DNA from: Candidatus Omnitrophota bacterium
GTDB lineage: Bacteria; Omnitrophota; Gorgyraeia; Gygaellales; Profunditerraquicolaceae
Assembly: GCA_041663665.1 (NCBI GenBank)
Contig: JBAYMG010000001.1
Location: forward strand, 193,482 to 257,481
Length of the DNA stretch: 64,000 nt
Direction: 5' to 3'
Position numbers and translations under genes: made by a program. Below are positions 3-23,810 of this stretch, piece by piece. The stretch's first letter is position 1. Every line of letters begins with the position of its first letter. The notes beneath the pieces were generated by a model, which worked only from the letters and a program-made list of their open reading frames with translations, searched no databases and was not told where the DNA came from.

Positions 3-221
3 GGCGGCTTAAGGTTTAATAACGATAGCTTTATTCCCACCTCAACTCCGGTAATGCTTGAAATTAATATATTAGACCGCATATTAAGGCCAGTGGGTAA
101 AGTGGCCTGGTCAACACCGTTGGCGCATTCCAGCCGTAGTCAAGTTGGCATAGAGTTCGTAGAGTTTAACGTAATTGAAAAGAACTATCTTAAAGAGTTT
201 GTAAATCTGCAACTTAGATAG
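3..221 (+). CDS. 5'-truncated CDS, probable C-terminal part of a PilZ-domain protein (enters from upstream of the window)
   Basis: Frame 3 is open from the window edge to TAG at 219-221. The C-terminal pattern (...VGIEFVEFNVIEKNYLKEFV) resembles the C-termini of the other PilZ proteins in this window. Confidence 0.35.
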   Translation, partial: GGLRFNNDSFIPTSTPVMLEINILDRILRPVGKVAWSTPLAHSSRSQVGIEFVEFNVIEKNYLKEFVNLQLR

Positions 222-10662: not shown

Positions 10663-10691
10663 GTTCCAATTAAGGTGATAATTTTTAAAGC

Positions 10692-11117
10692 TTGATTAAT
10701 AATGGAGGTAGCATGGCAGATAAGCTGGAAGGAAGAGAACGTAGGAAATCCGAGCGTATTGATGCTTCTTTTACTCTTACCTACTATGTCGAAAAGCCTT
10801 ATACTTTATGTATTAGCTTAGGTTTGGTGGGAAGCGTAGAGGCAGTAATGGTTAATTTAAGCGATTCCGGTATGGCAATTATAACCGATTATGATATTCC
10901 TCAGGGTGTTCAGCTTTATATTAAGTTTAACCTGATAAATATGCGTTTAAGCGGCGATGAGCGTTGGAGGTCAATGAAGATCACTGGGGATGTGGTTTCT
11001 AATGTACTCTTACCGAATAAAAGCCATAGAGTAGGTATTCATTTTGGGAAAATTTTAGAAGCGGATAGTGTAGCGATAAGGAATTTTGTGTTGTGTAATA
11101 AAATTCCTTCGGCATAA
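10692..11117 (+). CDS. PilZ domain protein
   Basis: RRKSER (RxxxR) and N-L-S-D-S-G (D/NxSxxG). Confidence 0.55.
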   Translation: MINNGGSMADKLEGRERRKSERIDASFTLTYYVEKPYTLCISLGLVGSVEAVMVNLSDSGMAIITDYDIPQGVQLYIKFNLINMRLSGDERWRSMKITGDVVSNVLLPNKSHRVGIHFGKILEADSVAIRNFVLCNKIPSA

Positions 11118-14796: not shown

Positions 14797-16440
14797 ATGC
14801 TTACTGCAGTATTTTCTCTAGCTTGTGTTTTATTCATATTTGCCTATATCAAGTACGGTAAATTCCTTAAAAAACATTTTGAATTGGACAATAATAATCA
14901 GGTTCCTTCGCAGCGTATGTATGATGGGGTAGATTATGTTCCGGCTCCTGCGCCAGTTTTATTCGGCCATCATTTTTCATCAATTGCCGGTGCTGGTCCG
15001 GTTTTAGGCCCGATTATTGCCGGTATTGTTTTTGGCTGGGCACCGGTTTGGTTGTGGGTGATCATCGGTTCTATTTTTATCGGCGGTATCCATGATTTTT
15101 CAAGCCTGGTAATTTCCATCCGTAACCGTGGACGTTCAATTGCTGAGATAGCTAATACATATATGTCTAAACGGGCATATCAGCTTATGCTTGCTTTTAT
15201 CTGGTTTACCCTGGTTTATGTGTTAACTGTTTTTACTGACTTAACTGCTAGTACTTTTAAGCTTGATGGGGGAGTGGGAACCTCATCGTTGCTTTTTATA
15301 CTGCTTGCGGTTGGTTTTGGAATTTTCTTGTACCGGGTAAAAATACCTTTAAAATTGGCGACTTTAATATTTGTTCCATTGTTATTTTTCTCGGTTTGGT
15401 TGGGGCAGATAATTCCTTTAAGCAATATTCCCGCGATTTTTGGAGATAGAGCCAAGACTTGGGATGTTGTGTTGATTATCTATTGTTTTGTTGCTTCGGT
15501 TACTCCGGTTTGGATATTATTGCAGCCACGTGATTATCTATCCAGTTTTTTGCTTTATGCTTCGCTAATCGGTGGATTCTTCGGAATTCTTTTAGGAGGG
15601 TTGCCGCTTAATTATCCGGCATTTATCAGTTGGGATGGACAGGGCATTGGGCCGATGTTTCCTATGCTTTTTATAACTGTGGCTTGCGGAGCAATCAGCG
15701 GTTTTCATGCTATTGTTGCCAGCGGCACCTCCTCTAAGCAGCTCAAAAAAGAATCTGATGCTTTACCTATTGGCTATGGCGCTATGCTGGTTGAGGGGTT
15801 GGTTGCTATTATTGCTTTATGTACGGTAATGGTTATCGGCCGAAATGATTCTTTAACTACCCAAGCGCCTTTAGCAATTTATGGCGCAGGCATAGCTAAA
15901 TTTTTATCTGTGTTTGGGGTCCCGGAAAAATTTGGAGCTTCTTTTGGGTTATTGGCACTTTCTACCTTTATTTTAACGACGCTAGATACTGCCACCAGGT
16001 TAGCTCGTTATATTTTTCAAGAATTTTTTAATATTGAAGGAAAACATACCCGGTATTTGGCAACGGCAGTTACTTTGTTTTTACCTGCGGTTTTTGTTTT
16101 AATTACCATTAAGGATGCAAGTGGTAATGTTATACCTGCCTGGAAAAGTATTTGGCCGGTTTTTGGAGCGACTAATCAGCTTTTAGCCGGGCTTGTACTT
16201 ATGGTTGTAGCGGTTTGGCTTAAGAAAAAAGGCAAACATATTTGGTTTGTAGTTATTCCTATGCTCTTCATGCTGCTGATGACGCTCTGGGCATTATTCT
16301 TGGTAATTATTCAGTATAAATTAAGCCTGATTGGTTTTATCGGAGTGATTCTATTGTTTTTAGCATTCTTATTGATTTTAGAAGCCATTAAAATTTTTGA
16401 GGTAAAACAGCACATCAGAAAAATTTTAAGGAAAAAATAA
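14797..16440 (+). CDS. cstA: carbon starvation protein A family transporter
   Basis: 547 aa polytopic membrane protein; HHFSSIAGAGPVLGPIIA CstA motif. Confidence 0.85.
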   Translation: MLTAVFSLACVLFIFAYIKYGKFLKKHFELDNNNQVPSQRMYDGVDYVPAPAPVLFGHHFSSIAGAGPVLGPIIAGIVFGWAPVWLWVIIGSIFIGGIHDFSSLVISIRNRGRSIAEIANTYMSKRAYQLMLAFIWFTLVYVLTVFTDLTASTFKLDGGVGTSSLLFILLAVGFGIFLYRVKIPLKLATLIFVPLLFFSVWLGQIIPLSNIPAIFGDRAKTWDVVLIIYCFVASVTPVWILLQPRDYLSSFLLYASLIGGFFGILLGGLPLNYPAFISWDGQGIGPMFPMLFITVACGAISGFHAIVASGTSSKQLKKESDALPIGYGAMLVEGLVAIIALCTVMVIGRNDSLTTQAPLAIYGAGIAKFLSVFGVPEKFGASFGLLALSTFILTTLDTATRLARYIFQEFFNIEGKHTRYLATAVTLFLPAVFVLITIKDASGNVIPAWKSIWPVFGATNQLLAGLVLMVVAVWLKKKGKHIWFVVIPMLFMLLMTLWALFLVIIQYKLSLIGFIGVILLFLAFLLILEAIKIFEVKQHIRKILRKK

Positions 16441-16644
16441 ATGGAATTTAGATTAGAAGGTGATTTTATTGAATTGGATAATTTGTTAAAGGCGGCAAGG
16501 TTTGCTTCTAGCGGTGCTGAAGCTAAACTGCAGATACAGAAAGGAAAAATTAAAGTTAATGGAGTTGTTGAGTCCCGTATTCGCCGGAAGCTTCGCTTGG
16601 GAGATGCTGTGGAGTTTGGGGATGAGAACATTAAAGTTATCTGA
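16441..16644 (+). CDS. S4-domain RNA-binding protein (YbcJ/ribosome-associated)
   Basis: 67 aa; GKIKVNGVVESRIRRKLRLGD S4 fold pattern. Confidence 0.65.
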   Translation: MEFRLEGDFIELDNLLKAARFASSGAEAKLQIQKGKIKVNGVVESRIRRKLRLGDAVEFGDENIKVI

Positions 16645-16675
16645 TAATTGAGAGATTGTTCTTAATTTATTCTAT

Positions 16676-16703
16676 TTGACTTCGGTTTTTATAAGATTAT
16701 AAT
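16676..16703 (+). promoter_or_regulatory. sigma70-type promoter TTGACT-N16-TATAAT upstream of the envelope cluster
   Basis: TTGACT at 16676-16681 and TATAAT at 16698-16703, read directly. Confidence 0.45.
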
Positions 16704-16739
16704 AAATTATATTGGTTAGATTAGGAGATAAGATTAAAC

Positions 16740-18239
16740 ATGCCCTTTAAAGTTTTTAAGACTTTCTTTGTTGTTCTCGCCATAGTTTCAACTACAACTT
16801 TAGCTTTCGCTCAAGAGCCGAAAAATCCCATTTCTGAAGAAGAAAAATTCAACTCAAAAAATTTACTCGATGAAACTGCTATGCAGGCAGAAATGGATTT
16901 TTATGCCGGAAATGACCATCAAGCAGAACTAATCTTTAAGGGTTTAAAGGAAAAGAAGAATCACGATGTTGCCTTATGGGGCAATCAGCTAGGGTCCTTG
17001 TATCTGGCGCAAGGCCGCAAAAAAGAAGCTTTGGAAGCTTTTATGGACGCATACCTAGTGATGAATAATCTGACCGCTTTTAAGGATTTGGAATTAAAAT
17101 CTGTCGGATTAACCAGTTCTGAAGCAACTAAGGCTTATAAGGGCGATCCCTATGAAAAAGTGTTCAATTCTTTTTATGTCGGTATGCTTCTTTATGCAGA
17201 TAAAGATTTTGAGAATGCCCTAGCTTCTTTTAAAAACGGTATTTTATGCGATTCTGATGTCGGAAGTGATCTTTATAAGAGCGATGTAACTATTCTTTAT
17301 TTGATGGCTTCGCGCCTGGAATCTCTTCAGAAAAATCAATCTATGGCAGATGATTATTTTAAGCAGGCAATGGAAGCATTTATCCTTTCTTGCCCGAATA
17401 ATCGGGCACTAGTTTCTCAGGAGCAGAGTTTGCTGGATGATTTGGCTAAGAAACAAAAAATTCTGTTAAAGAAAGAGGCTCCCTATAAAAATGAAAATTC
17501 AGCAGAGTCAGCTAAAGCTAAAGCTAAAACGAAAACTGCCAAGCTAGAAAAAGAAATTGCGGATTTGGGAACTGAAATTTCTAAGCTTGAAACTGAAATC
17601 AAAGTTTTGACTGACAAGATACAGGAAAATGGCCGTAAGCTGGTAACGAGTAGTTTAAGAGATATTGTCAATCTTAATAATAATACTTTGTTGTGTATTG
17701 AGACTGGCAAGGGGCCGCTTAAGTATCAGTCCGGCAACTTCGGGGAAAAAGCGATTTTTACTATCAAGCCTTATCAAGCCACAGGTTTTAGTGTTACAGT
17801 TGATAATTTTACCAGAATTGATGTTGGCAGTTTTCTAAAGAATAACGATATTTATTATCAGGCTTCTACCCGCGGCGGGAGGGTTATGGATAGTATCTTA
17901 AAAGGTAAGGCGGAATTTAAGCAAACTACCGCCGATGTTTCAGAGGTGATTTCTGTTGCTTCGCAGGTATATGATCCTTATGGGGTAATGTCGCTCTTTA
18001 GTTTGGCAACTAAAGCAGTCAGCAATGCGACTAATCCTTATGCTGATGCCAGGCATTGGAGCTTGATTCCTGCAGAGATTCAGATGATCCCATTACATTT
18101 AAATGCCGGAACGCATAAATTTCAGATCGATAGCTATGACTCTAAAGGGAAATTGATTGAAAGCGTAAAGTTTGATCTAGAGATCAAAGATGAGGTTAGT
18201 AATGTTATCTTTAAGAGGTTCAGGGGAAAGATTTCTTAA
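16740..18239 (+). CDS. secreted hypothetical protein with TPR-like N-terminal region and central coiled coil
   Basis: Signal peptide ...TLAFAQE; KAKAKTKTAKLEKEIADLGTEISKLETEIKVL coiled coil. Confidence 0.5.
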   Translation: MPFKVFKTFFVVLAIVSTTTLAFAQEPKNPISEEEKFNSKNLLDETAMQAEMDFYAGNDHQAELIFKGLKEKKNHDVALWGNQLGSLYLAQGRKKEALEAFMDAYLVMNNLTAFKDLELKSVGLTSSEATKAYKGDPYEKVFNSFYVGMLLYADKDFENALASFKNGILCDSDVGSDLYKSDVTILYLMASRLESLQKNQSMADDYFKQAMEAFILSCPNNRALVSQEQSLLDDLAKKQKILLKKEAPYKNENSAESAKAKAKTKTAKLEKEIADLGTEISKLETEIKVLTDKIQENGRKLVTSSLRDIVNLNNNTLLCIETGKGPLKYQSGNFGEKAIFTIKPYQATGFSVTVDNFTRIDVGSFLKNNDIYYQASTRGGRVMDSILKGKAEFKQTTADVSEVISVASQVYDPYGVMSLFSLATKAVSNATNPYADARHWSLIPAEIQMIPLHLNAGTHKFQIDSYDSKGKLIESVKFDLEIKDEVSNVIFKRFRGKIS

Positions 18240-18240
18240 T

Positions 18241-18807
18241 ATGAAAAAACTATTTTTTATAGTTTCCGTTTTTCTGCTTTCGGGATGTGCCAGTGTTAAT
18301 CCTTACGCTCTAACTAAGACCCAAACTGTTCTGGACTTAAGCAATAATCGCGGGGTAGCATTGTTTACTTTAAAAGTTAATAATCCTGCGCAGGGCAGCC
18401 GGCTTTCTTTAGCTTCTTTTACAGCCCGCGAAACTAATCAGTATAAAGCTTATAATACTTTAGGTTATTATTCTGTTCCATTAACCCAAGAAAGTTATTC
18501 GGTACAGGATGATTTATATTTTTGTTCGGCAATTTTAACCAGTGGTATATACCGGTTAGACTCGTTTAACGGAATGATTAATTTATTATTTGGCGTTCCG
18601 TACACTTTAAAAATGGATAAGATTTTTGATGTTTATCCGGGCGTGATAAGTTATCTCGGACGGCTTGATTCCGGGCCATTGGATATGAAATCTGCTTTTA
18701 TGCAGTTAAAAAGTATCAGGGATAATTATGAGCAGGATACAGTAAAATTTAAAGAAATTTTTCCGGTATTACAAAATAAAGAAATTGGAAAAGATTCATT
18801 TTATTAA
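18241..18807 (+). CDS. lipoprotein, hypothetical
   Basis: MKKLFFIVSVFLLSGC lipobox; start at the internal ATG 18241. Confidence 0.55.
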   Translation: MKKLFFIVSVFLLSGCASVNPYALTKTQTVLDLSNNRGVALFTLKVNNPAQGSRLSLASFTARETNQYKAYNTLGYYSVPLTQESYSVQDDLYFCSAILTSGIYRLDSFNGMINLLFGVPYTLKMDKIFDVYPGVISYLGRLDSGPLDMKSAFMQLKSIRDNYEQDTVKFKEIFPVLQNKEIGKDSFY

Positions 18808-18867
18808 GTTAATCTTTTAAGGTGTATTAAAGCGCCTATCCCCTGTGGGGGTTAGAAAGGAGCAGTA

Positions 18868-19461
18868 ATGAGGTGTTCAGTGATTATTCTTGGGGCATTT
18901 TGTTTATTTTTGGCAGGCTGTGCAACGGTTGAGACTTCGCACATGCGCTCGATTCAGCCGGATCAGGATGATGAACTGGGTGGAACAGGCATCGAATCTA
19001 CGGATATCCGCACGGTATCGAGAAAAATGGCTGCTTCAATATTAGATGTTCCTCAGATTATGAAAGCTCAAGGCACCCCTAAGATTGCGCTTTTACCGGT
19101 AAAAAATTCCACGCGTTTTATTATCAATAAAGATATTTTTACTAAAAAAATCCGCATCGAGCTTAATCAGAATGCTTCCGGTAAAATTACGTTTCTTGCC
19201 CGGGATCGCATGGACGATATCTTAAAAGAAAGAACATCTAAGCGCGAAGGTTTGGTTGGTGCTAGTAAGCAGGAGGATCTAAAAGGAGTAGATTTTTATC
19301 TTACCGGGGAATTAATCGGTTTAAGTAAAGCGATTAACGGCGACCGGTCGGATTATATCTCAATGTCCTTTCAGCTTATTGATGCTGAGACCAGCGAGAT
19401 TATCTGGGAGAATGAATACGAAGTTAAGCGCGTAGGCGAGACAGGCGCTGTTTATCAATAA
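18868..19461 (+). CDS. LpoB-like (COG3417/YcfM-like) lipoprotein
   Basis: Lipobox LAGC; IALLPVKNST...ITFLARDRMDDI pattern resembles PBP-activator LpoB; followed by a YcfL-like gene, as in E. coli ycfL-lpoB. Confidence 0.45.
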   Translation: MRCSVIILGAFCLFLAGCATVETSHMRSIQPDQDDELGGTGIESTDIRTVSRKMAASILDVPQIMKAQGTPKIALLPVKNSTRFIINKDIFTKKIRIELNQNASGKITFLARDRMDDILKERTSKREGLVGASKQEDLKGVDFYLTGELIGLSKAINGDRSDYISMSFQLIDAETSEIIWENEYEVKRVGETGAVYQ

Positions 19462-19480
19462 TTTTTTTAAGGAGAGGGCT

Positions 19481-19894
19481 ATGTTTAAGAAAACATATTT
19501 ATTGTTGCTTGTGTTTGCATTTGTATTTGCAGGTTGTTCTTCGGTTCCGGCGAAAGGAATTAAGCCTAAGAAAGTATCTCAGCTGTATGAAGAGACAGAA
19601 ACCTTTGTTTATTTAAATAAAAATTTAAATAAGCAGCTAATGCTGGTGGATCAGGCAGTTTCGTCTACTGAAGACGGCAGACTGATTGTTAAAGCCAAGT
19701 TATTCAATAAATTACCTGAAGATTTACGGGTGCAGATTCAGACTGTTTTTAAAGATAAAGACGGTTATCCATCTGGAGATGAAACAAACTGGGAATTAAT
19801 TATTGTTCCCCATGATGCCTATTATTATTATGAAGCCAAGGCTATGAATACAAGAGGCCAGAGCCATGTTTCGCGCTGCCGTTATGCTGAATAG
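19481..19894 (+). CDS. YcfL-like (DUF1425) lipoprotein
   Basis: Lipobox FAGC, ~125 aa mature protein, adjacent to the LpoB-like gene. Confidence 0.4.
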   Translation: MFKKTYLLLLVFAFVFAGCSSVPAKGIKPKKVSQLYEETETFVYLNKNLNKQLMLVDQAVSSTEDGRLIVKAKLFNKLPEDLRVQIQTVFKDKDGYPSGDETNWELIIVPHDAYYYYEAKAMNTRGQSHVSRCRYAE

Positions 19895-19909
19895 AAGTGT
19901 TCGGTTTTT

Positions 19910-21553
19910 ATGCAGGAGGACAAAACTATGTTAAGAAATATTTTGATTTTTTTCTTTGGTTTTAATTTTTTGATGTTAGCCGGGCAGCAAGCTTTGGCGC
20001 AGGATAATGGGAAGAATGAAGTTTATAACTATGAACAAAAAACCATTGGTAGGACTGTTAAAAAAGATTTAGAGATTCCGATTGCGATTTTCGTCTCTGA
20101 TGGGAATTTAAAATATAAAGATAGCCTTTTTAATTTACCCCAGGATGAGCAACAGCAGGTAACAGCAGTTACTGTTGATAAAGCTGAGATCAAGATTGAT
20201 AACGCCAAAAATCAGGATTTAAAAAAGAGAGATTCAGATTTATTGTCCGGGTTTTTAACTAATGCCCTGCTTAAAAGCGGTAAATTTAATATTGTTGAAC
20301 GCCAGGACATAAATGCTCTTTTAAGAGAAGCGGAGTTTAGTAATTCTAAATGGGTTAATCCTCAACAGGCAAATAGAATCGGCAATGTCTACGGGGTTAA
20401 GCATATTGTCATTGCGAATTTATTAAGAAATGAATCAGGAAATAGGGTTACTGCCGGTAATTATGCGTTAACTTTACGTTTGTGTGAGGTAGAAACCGGG
20501 AACATATCTGCCAGCGGCCAGGGGGAGGGATTAAATATAAAAGAAGCGGTTATCAATGCGGTGAGTGATTTTTCTGCTAAAGTCTCTAGCCAGCCTTGGA
20601 GCACGCGGATTATCAAGATTGAGGATGGTTTTATTTATTTTGCTGCCGGAACTAATGAAGGCCTAAAAGTTAAAGACGTGTTAGAGCTTTATAAGTTAAA
20701 AAGCCAAATCGTTGATCCGCAAACAAATAAAGTTTTAGGTGCTGAAAAAATAAAAGTAGGTAATATCGAAGTTGTTGAAATCCTGCGGGCAAATTTATCT
20801 AAGGCCAAGGTTTTAGAGTCGATAGAACCTGTAGCTGCGGATTTTATCATTCAGGCAAGCCCGGTGGAAAATAAGGGAACTGATGAAATGTTGAAATGGA
20901 AAAAAATTTACGGTGATACGAATCAAGCTAAGCCTATAGCTGAAGGGGTTGCTAATTCTGTTTCAGAAGCTGCTCCGGCAGCAAATATGAGTATGTCAAT
21001 CGAGGGGTTAGTGCAGGCAGCTAATCCGGCGGTGGTTATGATTACCACTGTTACCAGTAATGGTACTGCTTTAGGTAGTGGTTTTCTGATTAGCTCAGAT
21101 GGAGTTATTGTTACTAATAACCATGTAATCAAGGGTGCTGAGGGTTTGGGGGTTAAGTTTGCTCAAGGTAAGGAGTTGATTACTAATGTCAGCGTAGTAA
21201 AAACTGATGCTTTACGCGATATAGCTATAATTAAAGTTAATACTCCGGTTAATGTTACTCCGTTATCGCTTGGAGATTCAGAGCAGATAGCAGTAGGTGA
21301 GCGGGTAGTTGCTATCGGTAACCCGCAAGGATTACAGAATACAGTATCCGATGGTTTAGTCAGCGCAGTGCGTGATGATGGCGGCATAAAACAAATTCAG
21401 ATTAGTGTTCCGATTTCCCATGGTTCAAGCGGGGGTGCATTAATCAATATGCGCGGTGAAGTTATCGGGATAACCTCTTCGGGTATCGAGCAGGGGCAGA
21501 ATTTGAATTTTGCCATTCCGATAAATTACGTCAAAGAGTATCTACAGAAATAA
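19910..21553 (+). CDS. fusion: CsgG/LpoB-like N-terminal domain plus trypsin-like serine protease (S1C, HtrA-like, no PDZ)
   Basis: N-terminal FLTNALLKSGKFNIVER (CsgG-type LxxxLxxSGxFxV(L)ER); C-terminal TNNHVI (His), DIAIIK (Asp), GSSGGAL (Ser) catalytic triad context. Confidence 0.7.
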   Translation: MQEDKTMLRNILIFFFGFNFLMLAGQQALAQDNGKNEVYNYEQKTIGRTVKKDLEIPIAIFVSDGNLKYKDSLFNLPQDEQQQVTAVTVDKAEIKIDNAKNQDLKKRDSDLLSGFLTNALLKSGKFNIVERQDINALLREAEFSNSKWVNPQQANRIGNVYGVKHIVIANLLRNESGNRVTAGNYALTLRLCEVETGNISASGQGEGLNIKEAVINAVSDFSAKVSSQPWSTRIIKIEDGFIYFAAGTNEGLKVKDVLELYKLKSQIVDPQTNKVLGAEKIKVGNIEVVEILRANLSKAKVLESIEPVAADFIIQASPVENKGTDEMLKWKKIYGDTNQAKPIAEGVANSVSEAAPAANMSMSIEGLVQAANPAVVMITTVTSNGTALGSGFLISSDGVIVTNNHVIKGAEGLGVKFAQGKELITNVSVVKTDALRDIAIIKVNTPVNVTPLSLGDSEQIAVGERVVAIGNPQGLQNTVSDGLVSAVRDDGGIKQIQISVPISHGSSGGALINMRGEVIGITSSGIEQGQNLNFAIPINYVKEYLQK

Positions 21554-21581
21554 AAACATTTTTTAAGGAAAAAATAAGCCG

Positions 21582-21923
21582 ATGAGTATTGAACGAAGAG
21601 AAGCCCCCAGGTTTTTATTAAATCTTTCCGTAAGTGAAATTAGCGGGCACGGATTACTGGGTAAGGTGGTAGATTTTTCCCGTAAAGGGATGAGAATAAT
21701 CCTGGATGCGCCTGCGCTTAGCGAGAGAACAGATATACAAATTGCAATTAATCGGCCGGACTATAATAAACAGATTTTTGTTATTGCTTATGTCGCCTGG
21801 ATAAAGCCTTTCGAAGGTAAATACGAAGCTGGTTTGAAATTCAGGAATATTCCTCCTGATGCTAAGGCAGATTTCTTGAACTATGGTTATAAATTGTGGT
21901 TAAAGAATAGGCTTTCTTGCTAG
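21582..21923 (+). CDS. PilZ domain protein
   Basis: REAPR (RxxxR) and D-F-S-R-K-G (DxSxxG). Confidence 0.55.
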   Translation: MSIERREAPRFLLNLSVSEISGHGLLGKVVDFSRKGMRIILDAPALSERTDIQIAINRPDYNKQIFVIAYVAWIKPFEGKYEAGLKFRNIPPDAKADFLNYGYKLWLKNRLSC

Positions 21924-21947
21924 GAGTATTTTTTAAAATACATTTCT

Positions 21948-22736
21948 ATGTCAACTGCAATTTATTATTTTTCCGCAACCGGTAATTCTTTAAAAGTAGC
22001 CAGAGATTTAGCGAAGAGATTTGGCGATGTTAAGCTTATCCCGGTTACTAAAGCCTTAAAGGACGATAGCGGGCAATTTTTTGATATTGTTGGTATTGTT
22101 TATCCGGTTTACATGTTCGGCTTGCCGCTAATTATCAGAAAATTTCTCAAACAGATAAAATTTAAATCTGATGCTTATATTTTTAGTGTTGCTACTTTAG
22201 GCGGGTTACCCGGAAGGGCACATTCACTTGCTAAGAATATTCTTGCGCAACGTGGATATAAGCTTGCTCTTGGATTTTCAGTACTTATGCCGGGAAATTA
22301 TACTCCGCTTTATGGAGCGATCGCTCAAGAGAAGCAGGACAAGGTGTTTGAGGAAGAGGAGGGGCGTATTCAATTTATTGCTGAAAATATACTTGCCCGA
22401 AAGCGCGGTATAATTGAAGAAAAGCCGGCTCTGGCTAATTTTTTGCTTTATAAGCTTTTGTATAGAGGAGGAATGGCGCAAGTGCCCTTATCCGGTAAGA
22501 ACTTTTGGGTAAATGAAGCTTGTATCAAGTGCGGGCTTTGTGCTAAGGTTTGCCCGGTTAACAATGTTGAATTAGTTGAAGGTAAGCCTAAATGGCTCGA
22601 TCATTGCCAGCAGTGTATGGCTTGTTTGCAATGGTGTCCGGTTGAGGCGATTCAATATAAGAAAAATACTGTCGGCAGGAAACGCTATCATCATCCGGCA
22701 ATTACTGTTGGGGATATAATGGAGCAAAAAATATGA
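21948..22736 (+). CDS. EFR1-family ferredoxin (flavodoxin-like domain plus 2x[4Fe-4S])
   Basis: N-terminal IYYFSATGNS flavodoxin-like, C-terminal CIKCGLCAKVCP / CQQCMACLQWCP. Confidence 0.7.
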   Translation: MSTAIYYFSATGNSLKVARDLAKRFGDVKLIPVTKALKDDSGQFFDIVGIVYPVYMFGLPLIIRKFLKQIKFKSDAYIFSVATLGGLPGRAHSLAKNILAQRGYKLALGFSVLMPGNYTPLYGAIAQEKQDKVFEEEEGRIQFIAENILARKRGIIEEKPALANFLLYKLLYRGGMAQVPLSGKNFWVNEACIKCGLCAKVCPVNNVELVEGKPKWLDHCQQCMACLQWCPVEAIQYKKNTVGRKRYHHPAITVGDIMEQKI

Positions 22737-22751
22737 AAGGCTTAAAATAAA

Positions 22752-23162
22752 ATGCAAATAGAAATTTTTTCCTTATGTGATGCGGCAACTGCGGATTTTG
22801 GAAAACTTAGTATGTTGGGGGCATTTGATACGCTTTGGGTAAGTAAAATGCCGGCTGTGCACCCGCAATGTACAATTGCCTTAAGGATTGGATTTAAAAG
22901 AATTGAAAAAGGTGAGCATAAAATTTTGGTTCATTTCGTAGATGCTGATGGAAAGAATATTATTTCTCCAGCTCAAGGGGGTATAGCAATAAATTTTCCT
23001 GAGGATCAAAGTTCTTGTTCGGCAAATTTAATTTTTAATATCCAGAGCCTAAAGCTGGAAAAATTAGGTGAATATTCTATTGATTTAGCTATTGATGGGC
23101 AGCAAAAGGCATCATTACCGCTTTTTGTAAAAGAACATAAAATAAAAAAGGAGGGGTTATGA
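22752..23162 (+). CDS. hypothetical protein
   Basis: 136-aa ORF with good coding look; no recognisable domain. Confidence 0.4.
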   Translation: MQIEIFSLCDAATADFGKLSMLGAFDTLWVSKMPAVHPQCTIALRIGFKRIEKGEHKILVHFVDADGKNIISPAQGGIAINFPEDQSSCSANLIFNIQSLKLEKLGEYSIDLAIDGQQKASLPLFVKEHKIKKEGL

Positions 23163-23359
23163 AGAAGATCTTAGTTTTGTTGTCAGTTGTTTTGTTTTTA
23201 GCTGGCTGCTGCTCTACTACCGCAACCAAATATCTTAAGAAGGTGACAGTTGAGAAAGATGGTGATGGTAAGATAGTTAAGACAATTGTTGAGGAGCAGG
23301 TTATACAATCACATCTTGAAAAAGCACCAATTGAGCTTGAGCAGATAGAAGCGAAGTAG
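23159..23359 (+). CDS. small lipoprotein
   Basis: MKKILVLLSVVLFLAGCC lipobox; 4-nt overlap with the upstream gene. Confidence 0.45.
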   Translation: MKKILVLLSVVLFLAGCCSTTATKYLKKVTVEKDGDGKIVKTIVEEQVIQSHLEKAPIELEQIEAK

Positions 23360-23377
23360 GGATATTATCGATTAATA

Positions 23378-23430
23378 AATCGGGGACGCTCCTATTTAAT
23401 TAAAATAAATAGGAGCGTCCCCGATTTTCC
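23378..23430 (+). terminator. rho-independent terminator
   Basis: Perfect inverted repeat AAATCGGGGACGCTCCTATTT / AAATAGGAGCGTCCCCGATTT followed by TTTTCC. Confidence 0.75.
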
Positions 23431-23468
23431 TATTGCTTTGAGAGTAATTTTGAGGGGAGAGGTTTGAT

Positions 23469-23810
23469 ATGTTTGAACACAAACATCAAAAAGTAGCTCC
23501 TGTTCACGTTTTTATCAAGAGATTGGTTCTGTACATCGGCGTTGCCATTGTGCTTATCCTGGCTGCCCTGTGTATTGGGATTATCGGGTATCGTTATGTG
23601 GCTGGTTTGACTTGGATAGACGCGCTATTGAACGCATCCATGATCTTGGGAGGAATGGGGCCTGTGGATAAGCTCACTCAGCCGGCTGCAAAAATTTTTG
23701 CGTCAGCATACGCTCTTTTTAGCGGCCTTATCTTCATTGCGGTTATGAGTATTATCTTAACTCCTATCGTACACAGGATTCTTCATAAATTCCATGTCGA
23801 TGAGGAATAA
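23469..23810 (+). CDS. small integral membrane protein (3 TM)
   Basis: Hydrophobic segments; RBS GGGGAGAGG upstream. Confidence 0.45.
   Translation: MFEHKHQKVAPVHVFIKRLVLYIGVAIVLILAALCIGIIGYRYVAGLTWIDALLNASMILGGMGPVDKLTQPAAKIFASAYALFSGLIFIAVMSIILTPIVHRILHKFHVDEE

Follow-up and report, generated by a model that had tools for sequence, protein, structure and literature searches.

A conserved envelope lipoprotein cassette of Omnitrophota in which a DegP-type protease is fused to one subunit

The 64,000-nucleotide stretch of Candidatus Omnitrophota contig JBAYMG010000001.1 analysed here (the window) carries, between 16.7 and 21.9 kb, six tightly spaced open reading frames (ORFs), all on the + strand. 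The first five, A to E (16740-21553), encode exported proteins; the sixth, F, encodes a PilZ protein. The A-E cassette belongs to a kind of envelope lipoprotein operon that is known but has not been characterised; in this version, a DegP-type protease is fused to one of the subunits, protein E. It is not a new kind of system: each of its domains is known, and the domain architecture is already given by automatic pipelines. A preliminary description, made from the DNA letters, had recognized a cluster of exported proteins and lipoproteins at this site, and the ORFs, signal peptides and lipoboxes are in agreement with this. Its reading of the domains is accurate with small corrections, except that the beta-barrel in the middle of E was overlooked. 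The coordinates of all features are collected in Table 1.

The comparison of loci indicates that A-E is a real, self-contained and vertically conserved Omnitrophota module. Contigs were fetched for E homologues at 69%, 63%, 51%, 39% and 38% identity, and a metagenome scan with a profile of C provided 20 further loci, for which local hidden Markov models (HMMs) of A, B, C, D and three parts of E were used. In each of the five fetched contigs the genes have the order A-B-C-D-E and the flanks are unrelated. The same order is found in every sufficiently long Omnitrophota locus examined, about 17 in all (the loci with the full order are L012, L014-L018, L020, L021, L023, L024, L031, L033/34 and L037), the shorter contigs having partial cassettes. 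The presence of the same five genes in the same order at independent loci shows that the clustering is far beyond chance, and the grouping put forward in the preliminary description is therefore also seen in other genomes. The signal peptides and lipoboxes are kept in all orthologues. When genome contigs were scanned with one protein alone, only a single close relative was obtained.

Two kinds of variants show which parts of the module are its core. A protease-less form of E (E') of 341-368 residues, ending after the FlgT_C-type barrel, is found in L022, L023 and L025. A second type of cassette, with the order C-D-E-A' and without B, is present in L025 and L026, where A' is a TPR-rich (tetratricopeptide repeat) lipoprotein paralogue of A; both A-E and A' are found in L024 and L037. 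Because protease-less forms exist within and also beyond Omnitrophota, the protease is seen as a lineage-specific gain on an older scaffold, and it is an optional add-on to E. As regards the localised proteolytic machine suggested earlier, the protease of E is intact in the window, but it is missing in L022, L023 and L025 and in the Verrucomicrobiota-type module discussed below.

Protein E is a fusion of a CsgG/LpoB-fold domain and a complete S1 protease, as proposed in the preliminary description, with matches above the Pfam thresholds and an invariant catalytic triad. The longest ORF, from 19910, gives the 547 residues reported previously, but the AGGAGG sequence at 19913-19918 favours ATG 19928 and hence a protein of 541 residues, as in the NCBI record. 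The signal peptide is of type I (residues 1-24, ALA↓QD), and there is no cysteine in any of six orthologues. The N-terminal domain matches both CsgG (46.2 bits, Pfam cutoff 20.8) and LpoB (33.4 bits). The middle domain is related to the barrel of TsaP (6ve2_O at an E-value of 3.4e-7 and the TsaP of 3jc8 at 0.005, with the profile of residues 222-312), and FlgT_C is matched by four of nine E members at 1e-3 or weaker, single sequences being below the Pfam threshold. In the AlphaFold2 (AF2) model the middle domain and the protease are well modelled, with a predicted local distance difference test (pLDDT) score of about 80 for the middle domain.

The protease domain of E has the catalytic residues H399, D431 and S501 (GSSGG), which are invariant in 13 E homologues, and it is 33-40% identical to HtrA/DegP/DegQ-type proteases. 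Its fold is superposable on those of DegQ, DegP and HtrA1 (Foldseek E-values of about 1e-18). The score of E with the Do-family model TIGR02037 is far below the cutoff (150 versus 416 bits), because only the protease part matches. HtrA, DegP and DegQ have one or two C-terminal PDZ domains, whereas in E no PDZ domain is found by HMM search, its sequence stopping where the protease domain stops; at the N-terminus, E has a scaffold module instead. The protease also matches the PADLOC models RT-Protease_XI, LmuA and Avs1b, as might be expected if the cassette were an anti-phage defence or other conflict system built on a protease effector. However, these matches do not go beyond the generic trypsin fold, none of the other five proteins matches a PADLOC model, all cassette proteins have export signals, no defence-island location is seen here, and the inheritance looks vertical, the cassette being conserved across the phylum. 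A defence function is thus rejected, and we regard it as extremely improbable.

The geometry of the N-terminal domain of E is of importance when considering the CsgG-like pore that the preliminary description had in mind. In CsgG, each subunit contributes two transmembrane beta-hairpins to a 36-stranded barrel. The profile of the E domain matches CsgG structures in two pieces, corresponding to CsgG residues 62-94 and 156-192, between which there are 42 residues in E and 62 in CsgG, and the E domain ends 8 residues later. The shortfall of about 20 residues is presumably at the site of the first transmembrane hairpin of CsgG, and we take the domain to end before the second. In the AF2 model this domain has alpha/beta secondary structure with short strands only. 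E shares the fold family of CsgG, but it has no lipobox and no room for the two hairpins, and no csgE/F/A/B-like genes are present with it. As judged from its length, the domain is too short for the CsgG membrane hairpins and would be part of a scaffold, not of a pore; a CsgG pore is rejected on the domain length and the missing hairpins. The short N-terminal domain, the absence of a lipobox and the FlgT_C/TsaP-type barrel make E resemble a ring or scaffold subunit and not a channel.

Such a barrel is also a feature of Vibrio FlgT, of the flagellar H-ring, and of TsaP, of the type IV pilus secretin ring, which are periplasmic ring builders under the outer membrane; FlgT presumably also has an N-terminal TolB-N-like alpha/beta domain. 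Unlike these proteins, E has no LysM domain, it has a protease, and there are no flagellar or pilus genes nearby: no gene of a flagellum, pilus or secretin is among the 88 genes that flank the cassette in 16 loci. Altogether, E has the look of a soluble protein of the same kind as LpoB, FlgT and TsaP, a scaffold or ring subunit to which a protease has been appended.

It has also been considered that the cassette could serve in export at the outer membrane, as do the curli, Pel and holdfast systems. The CsgG-fold subunits, together with an outer-membrane beta-barrel, would then make up or gate a channel through which a fibre or polysaccharide passes, and the protease would mature this cargo. 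This is consistent with the presence of CsgG/LpoB-fold domains in both C and E and with the genes for outer-membrane barrels near some cassettes: in L014, L017/18 and L024 a gene for an OMP_b-brl barrel of about 275 residues adjoins the cassette, and in L015 one for an Alginate_exp barrel is upstream of it. The LpoB-like gene of the Sphingomonas cluster described below, which is annotated as 'CsgG/HfaB family' and is near a nucleotide-sugar dehydrogenase gene, also fits this possibility. Nevertheless, C is, like E, too short for the CsgG membrane hairpins. The barrel of about 275 residues is, apart from PilZ, the only recurrent neighbour, being present in three divergent loci, but it has no homologue in the window and is not found in most loci. 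No conserved cargo and no inner-membrane or cytoplasmic export component is found among the flanking genes. An export function is therefore considered unlikely.

Of the three lipoproteins, C is the most conserved member of the cassette, with 66-86% identity among orthologues, compared with 38-73% for E and 32-68% for B. It is a member of the LpoB family, as stated in the preliminary description, with 73.7 bits for Pfam LpoB (PF13036, cutoff 22.3) and 21.2 bits for Pfam CsgG (PF03783, cutoff 20.8). A short motif, LGGTGIESTDIRT, is invariant in six aligned Omnitrophota orthologues of C, except for one S-to-A replacement, and is not present in the C of the Verrucomicrobiota-type module; from this pattern of conservation, it may be a lineage-specific interaction site. 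The assignment of D to the YcfL/DUF1425 family is weak for the window protein itself (17 bits with PF07233, cutoff 28.3), but DUF1425 is matched by five of six D orthologues (best E-value 4.6e-7), and the D profile also finds the bona fide DUF1425 proteins in the loci L040 and L041 (3e-6 and 5e-9). The hhalign comparison of D with E. coli YcfL gives an E-value of 1.5e-3.

Protein B is present in all type-1 cassettes, and no relatives of it are found in Pfam, NCBIfam or the PDB. Its length was given previously as 189 residues; ATG 18241 is taken here as the start of the lipoprotein, which gives 188. A relationship between B and the PEGA-domain protein of the Verrucomicrobiota-type module was considered and rejected, as hhalign gives no match and the PHROGs search matched only the signal peptide. 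No meaningful sequence match with solved structures is found for B, C or D.

Protein A has a type-I signal peptide, no cysteine and no lipobox. Its score with TPR_12 is just below the cutoff (30.0 versus 30.1 bits). The AF2 model (pLDDT 75) shows TPR-like helices (residues 46-217), a coiled-coil hairpin (219-299) and a C-terminal beta-sandwich (316-494). No meaningful relatives of solved structure are found by sequence, and the Foldseek comparison of the model with the PDB gives generic TPR matches only, with E-values above 1e-3. An exhaustive profile search shows that the family of A has 1681 representative clusters, 426 of them at an E-value of 1e-30 or better. These are mostly lipoproteins of 390-480 residues without a coiled coil, most of the relatives having G/A-C lipoboxes, and they have in common the motifs KG(D/E)PYE(R/K), QA.TRGGR.MD and P.AD.R.W..LP. 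The nearer relatives of A carry no family name. The name 'COG3014 family protein', for which NCBIfam has no model, is given by NCBI to a more distant branch, in Limisphaerales and Verrucomicrobiota. The hhalign comparison of the A profile with the group that includes the COG3014-named proteins gives a probability of 97% and an E-value of 1e-10 over 109 columns, in the N-terminal TPR region of A, and the HMM matches between A and these proteins also span the C-terminal AD.R.W..LP motif. On the basis of these profile matches, A is classified as a divergent member of a COG3014-related family. The lipoprotein signal that is common among the COG3014-type relatives is not present in the A of the window or in its type-1 orthologues.

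The same core is also found outside Omnitrophota. In the high-GC contigs L039, L040 and L041, whose A-like proteins share 51-54% identity with proteins assigned by NCBI to Limisphaerales, the gene order is PEGA-domain protein, CsgG/FlgT-like protein, COG3014 lipoprotein, DUF1425 lipoprotein and LpoB-family lipoprotein (in L039 with 65.5 bits for DUF1425 and 71.7 bits for LpoB). The CsgG/FlgT-like protein has about 300 residues and no protease. The N-terminus of the PEGA protein of L039 is weakly similar to GNA1162-like/CsgG-fold lipoproteins. On a plasmid of Sphingomonas hankookensis, LpoB-like, A-family and D-like genes are side by side (E-values of 1e-22, 2e-39 and 3e-9 with the Omnitrophota profiles); the nucleotide-sugar dehydrogenase gene mentioned above adjoins this cluster. 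This cultured alphaproteobacterium may be tractable for studies of the core module.

The A, D and C core, when compared at the level of gene content and order, has those of the cj0089-91 operon of Campylobacter jejuni. The proteins encoded by cj0089 (a TPR lipoprotein of 453 residues), cj0090 (122 residues) and cj0091 (207 residues) are outer-membrane-associated lipoproteins encoded in one operon (PMC3100323). In the C. jejuni system and its Helicobacter pylori counterparts HP0018 and HP1457, there is likewise a TPR protein of about 450-480 residues, a small lipoprotein of 120-140 residues and an LpoB-homologous lipoprotein of about 200 residues (PMC3100323, PMC11394524), and the content and order match those of the A-D-C core of the Verrucomicrobiota-type loci. 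We take Cj0089 to be a member of COG3014. The C. jejuni operon differs from the Omnitrophota cassette in having no CsgG/FlgT-like subunit, no protease and no B, and Cj0089 is itself a lipoprotein, whereas the A of the window is secreted and has an inserted coiled coil. Cj0091 and HP1457 are described as LpoB homologues, the mutant of HP0018, the homologue of Cj0089, has an outer-membrane-vesicle phenotype, and HP0018 co-immunoprecipitates with AmiA and MltD (PMC11394524). The C. jejuni operon points to a role in envelope maintenance.

In E. coli K-12, only ycfL-lpoB is retained. Here also a gene for a DUF1425 lipoprotein adjoins a gene for an LpoB-family lipoprotein, but the gene order is reversed and there is no COG3014-like or CsgG/FlgT-like partner at the locus. 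In our reading, the Omnitrophota module is a lineage-specific elaboration of a wider core, consisting of a COG3014-type TPR protein, a YcfL/DUF1425 lipoprotein and an LpoB-fold lipoprotein, and this core is joined in bacteria of the PVC group (Planctomycetes, Verrucomicrobia, Chlamydiae) by a protein with a CsgG fold and a FlgT_C barrel. This suggests an older assembly of several lipoproteins as the origin of E. coli LpoB.

E. coli LpoB is the activator of the penicillin-binding protein (PBP) PBP1B, and a hint of PBP regulation was also seen in the preliminary description. If C were a true LpoB-type activator, then the cassette would regulate a class A PBP and thereby peptidoglycan synthesis or turnover, and the protease would control the level of a synthase or hydrolase. 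The Pfam LpoB score of C and the adjacency of ycfL and lpoB in E. coli agree with this. However, C appears to be a match at the level of Pfam LpoB only. Its score with the LpoB equivalog TIGR02722 is 66.2 bits, below the cutoff of 110.55, and the orthology with the PBP1B activator is therefore not established; also the hhalign comparison with E. coli LpoB is weak (E-value 1.2e-3). E. coli LpoB has a long disordered linker, whereas C has a short, invariant N-terminal motif. UB2H, the domain of PBP1B that serves for docking, is not known outside some Gammaproteobacteria. The genes flanking the cassette include no conserved PBP gene. Further evidence in favour is that the partners of HP0018 in co-immunoprecipitation, AmiA and MltD, are peptidoglycan hydrolases (PMC11394524). 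Taken together, regulation of a PBP by this cassette is improbable; like the export channel, this possibility lacks a defining feature.

The reading that we favour, and consider reasonably probable, is that A-E form a multi-protein assembly tethered at the periplasmic face of the outer membrane, which holds the protease in place. In such an assembly, B, C and D, none of which has an Asp at position +2, would be the anchors in the outer membrane. A, which would have dispensed with the lipid anchor that its relatives usually have and acquired a long coiled coil, may offer a TPR binding platform; it is probably held by, or paired with, B, since the A and B genes are coupled, the stop of A and the start of B being 1 nt apart. 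E would dock by means of its CsgG/LpoB-fold domain and its FlgT_C/TsaP-type barrel. By analogy with FlgT, TsaP, CsgG and PelC, where similar folds form rings beneath the outer membrane, E may be arranged as a ring. In this way E would hold the PDZ-less HtrA protease for local processing or quality control of envelope proteins.

Several points weigh against this reading. The assembly, with its physical links among the five proteins, is predicted from the genes. Ring formation by E rests on analogy, and the model of E is of moderate confidence (mean pLDDT 61.7, with 55-73 for the N-terminal domain). The sorting rule for lipoproteins, concerning Asp at +2, may not be Omnitrophota's own; the role of B is a guess, as B has no detectable relatives; and the role of the protease is a proposed one. 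The link between A and Cj0089/HP0018 is an indirect one, made via the COG3014-named proteins, the gene content and order, and the placing of Cj0089 in COG3014. Finally, the outer-membrane barrel genes beside the cassette (L014, L015, L017 and L024) also fit an export function.

A more far-reaching idea, which is tentative and to our mind rather doubtful, is that the COG3014-type, YcfL, LpoB-fold and CsgG/FlgT-like proteins are one ancient, unrecognised periplasmic machine, a ring or cage beneath the outer membrane that couples this membrane to peptidoglycan remodelling. It would be common to the PVC phyla Omnitrophota and Verrucomicrobiota, to Alphaproteobacteria and to Campylobacterota, with ycfL-lpoB of E. 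coli as a remnant, and the protease fusion of Omnitrophota would then be a clue to its activity, a turnover of proteins at that place in the envelope. Envelope lipoproteins of the YcfL/DUF1425 and COG3014 families are widespread and have no known function, and the LpoB-family proteins beyond the enterobacteria are mostly uncharacterised; literature searches on YcfL, DUF1425, COG3014 and the envelope proteins of Omnitrophota yielded no study of what the module does. In the loci described here, YcfL, COG3014 and LpoB-family proteins belong together in a single module that is conserved across distant phyla, and the intact HtrA protease recruited by the Omnitrophota module provides a testable handle on function, for example by a substrate search.

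Table 1. Features of the cassette, its surroundings and related loci. Positions are those of the window unless a locus is named.
Feature	Position	Strand	Remark
Sigma-70-like promoter, TTGACT-16-TATAAT	16676-16703	+	consensus match only
Gene A, secreted TPR/coiled-coil protein, 499 aa	16740-18239	+	
A motif KAYKGDPYEK	17130-17159		
A motif GILCDSD	17238-17258		
A motif TRGGRVMD	17868-17891		
A motif ADARHWSLIP	18042-18071		
Gene B, lipoprotein, 188 aa	18241-18807	+	lipobox LSG↓C; ATG 18241
Gene C, LpoB-family lipoprotein, 197 aa	18868-19461	+	lipobox LAG↓C
C motif LGGTGIESTDIRT	18976-19014		C residues 37-49, just N-terminal of LpoB domain
Gene D, YcfL/DUF1425-like lipoprotein, 137 aa	19481-19894	+	lipobox FAG↓C
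Gene E, secreted fusion protein, 541 aa	19928-21553	+	from ATG 19928
E N-terminal CsgG/LpoB-fold domain	20060-20587	+	residues 45-220; CsgG 46.2, LpoB 33.4 bits
E middle beta-barrel, FlgT_C/TsaP type	20591-20863	+	residues 222-312; profile match
E HtrA/DegP-type serine protease domain, without PDZ	20990-21553	+	residues 355-541; Trypsin_2 108.8 bits
E catalytic His codon	21122-21124	+	
E catalytic Asp codon	21218-21220	+	
E catalytic Ser codon	21428-21430	+	
Gene F, single-domain PilZ protein	21582-21923	+	PilZ 48.7 bits
EFR1 ferredoxin gene	21948-22736		
DUF6941 gene	22752-23162		
66-aa lipoprotein gene	23159-23359		
Terminator-like hairpin, 20-bp stem	23379-23425	not assigned (.)	first strong one after cassette
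Protease-less E-like genes	L022 1902-2945; L023 4134-5156; L025 10946-12049		
A'-related sites	L025 9974-13843; L026 6819-11394; L024 9026-10630; L037 6309-7652		
PEGA-domain first gene, Verrucomicrobiota type	L039 5803-6960; L040 4916-6058; L041 4602-5987		
OMP_b-brl/Autotransporter-like barrel, ~275 aa, adjoining cassette	L014 3742-4545; L017 5407-6201; L024 2825-3631		
Alginate_exp barrel, upstream of cassette	L015 3470-4786		
Sphingomonas hankookensis cluster (L043)	plasmid NZ_CP117027.1, 57.9-61.3 kb		also a 279-aa gene of no named family

The PilZ gene F, downstream of the cassette, had led to the suggestion of a module responding to cyclic di-GMP (c-di-GMP), with F as the neighbouring receptor. 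F is a canonical PilZ protein with both the RxxxR and DxSxxG motifs, present as RREAPR and DFSRKG. Its start is 28 nt after the stop of E with no terminator between them. In L016 and L020, two genes for PilZ proteins are found 2-2.6 kb upstream, and a GGDEF/EAL gene is present 2.4 kb from the Sphingomonas cluster. PilZ is the most frequent Pfam family among the flanking genes, but its five matches all come from the window and from L016 and L020, which are a pair of related genomes. Against this, no F homologue adjoins the cassette in any other locus examined. PilZ ORFs are unusually dense, with about four in the 64-kb window (3-218, 441-791, 10689-11114, which is weak, and 21582-21923), so that the chance of finding one within 3.5 kb is roughly 0.35. 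PilZ proteins are cytoplasmic, whereas every protein of the cassette is exported and there is no gene for a membrane-spanning partner, and no riboswitch, including the c-di-GMP type, is found upstream of A. Control by c-di-GMP is thus rejected on synteny, PilZ background density and the lack of a riboswitch, and we consider it very unlikely; F is a bystander outside the conserved module. The numbers suggest a large single-domain PilZ family in this Omnitrophota lineage; several PilZ ORFs are also seen in the related L020.

The sigma-70 promoter noted previously ahead of A is a near-consensus site, in agreement with the consensus at 11 of 12 positions, and, being a consensus match only, is the top-scoring site in 16300-23500. 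It is in the 95-nt gap before A, the sole sizeable upstream gap. The overall number of promoter-like sites is not above the shuffled expectation (16 observed versus 19.6 expected). Downstream, the intergenic gaps from 21553 to 23359 are all 28 nt or shorter. The hairpin that follows has a perfect 20-bp stem with T-rich tails on both strands, and it is possible that it marks the end of a longer transcript that also includes the genes for PilZ, the EFR1 ferredoxin, DUF6941 and the 66-residue lipoprotein. Further along the window, at about 32.7-33.4 kb, the gene orientation flips from all + to all -, and the GC skew falls from +0.15..0.28 to about 0; this switch may be a replication-related or an assembly boundary.

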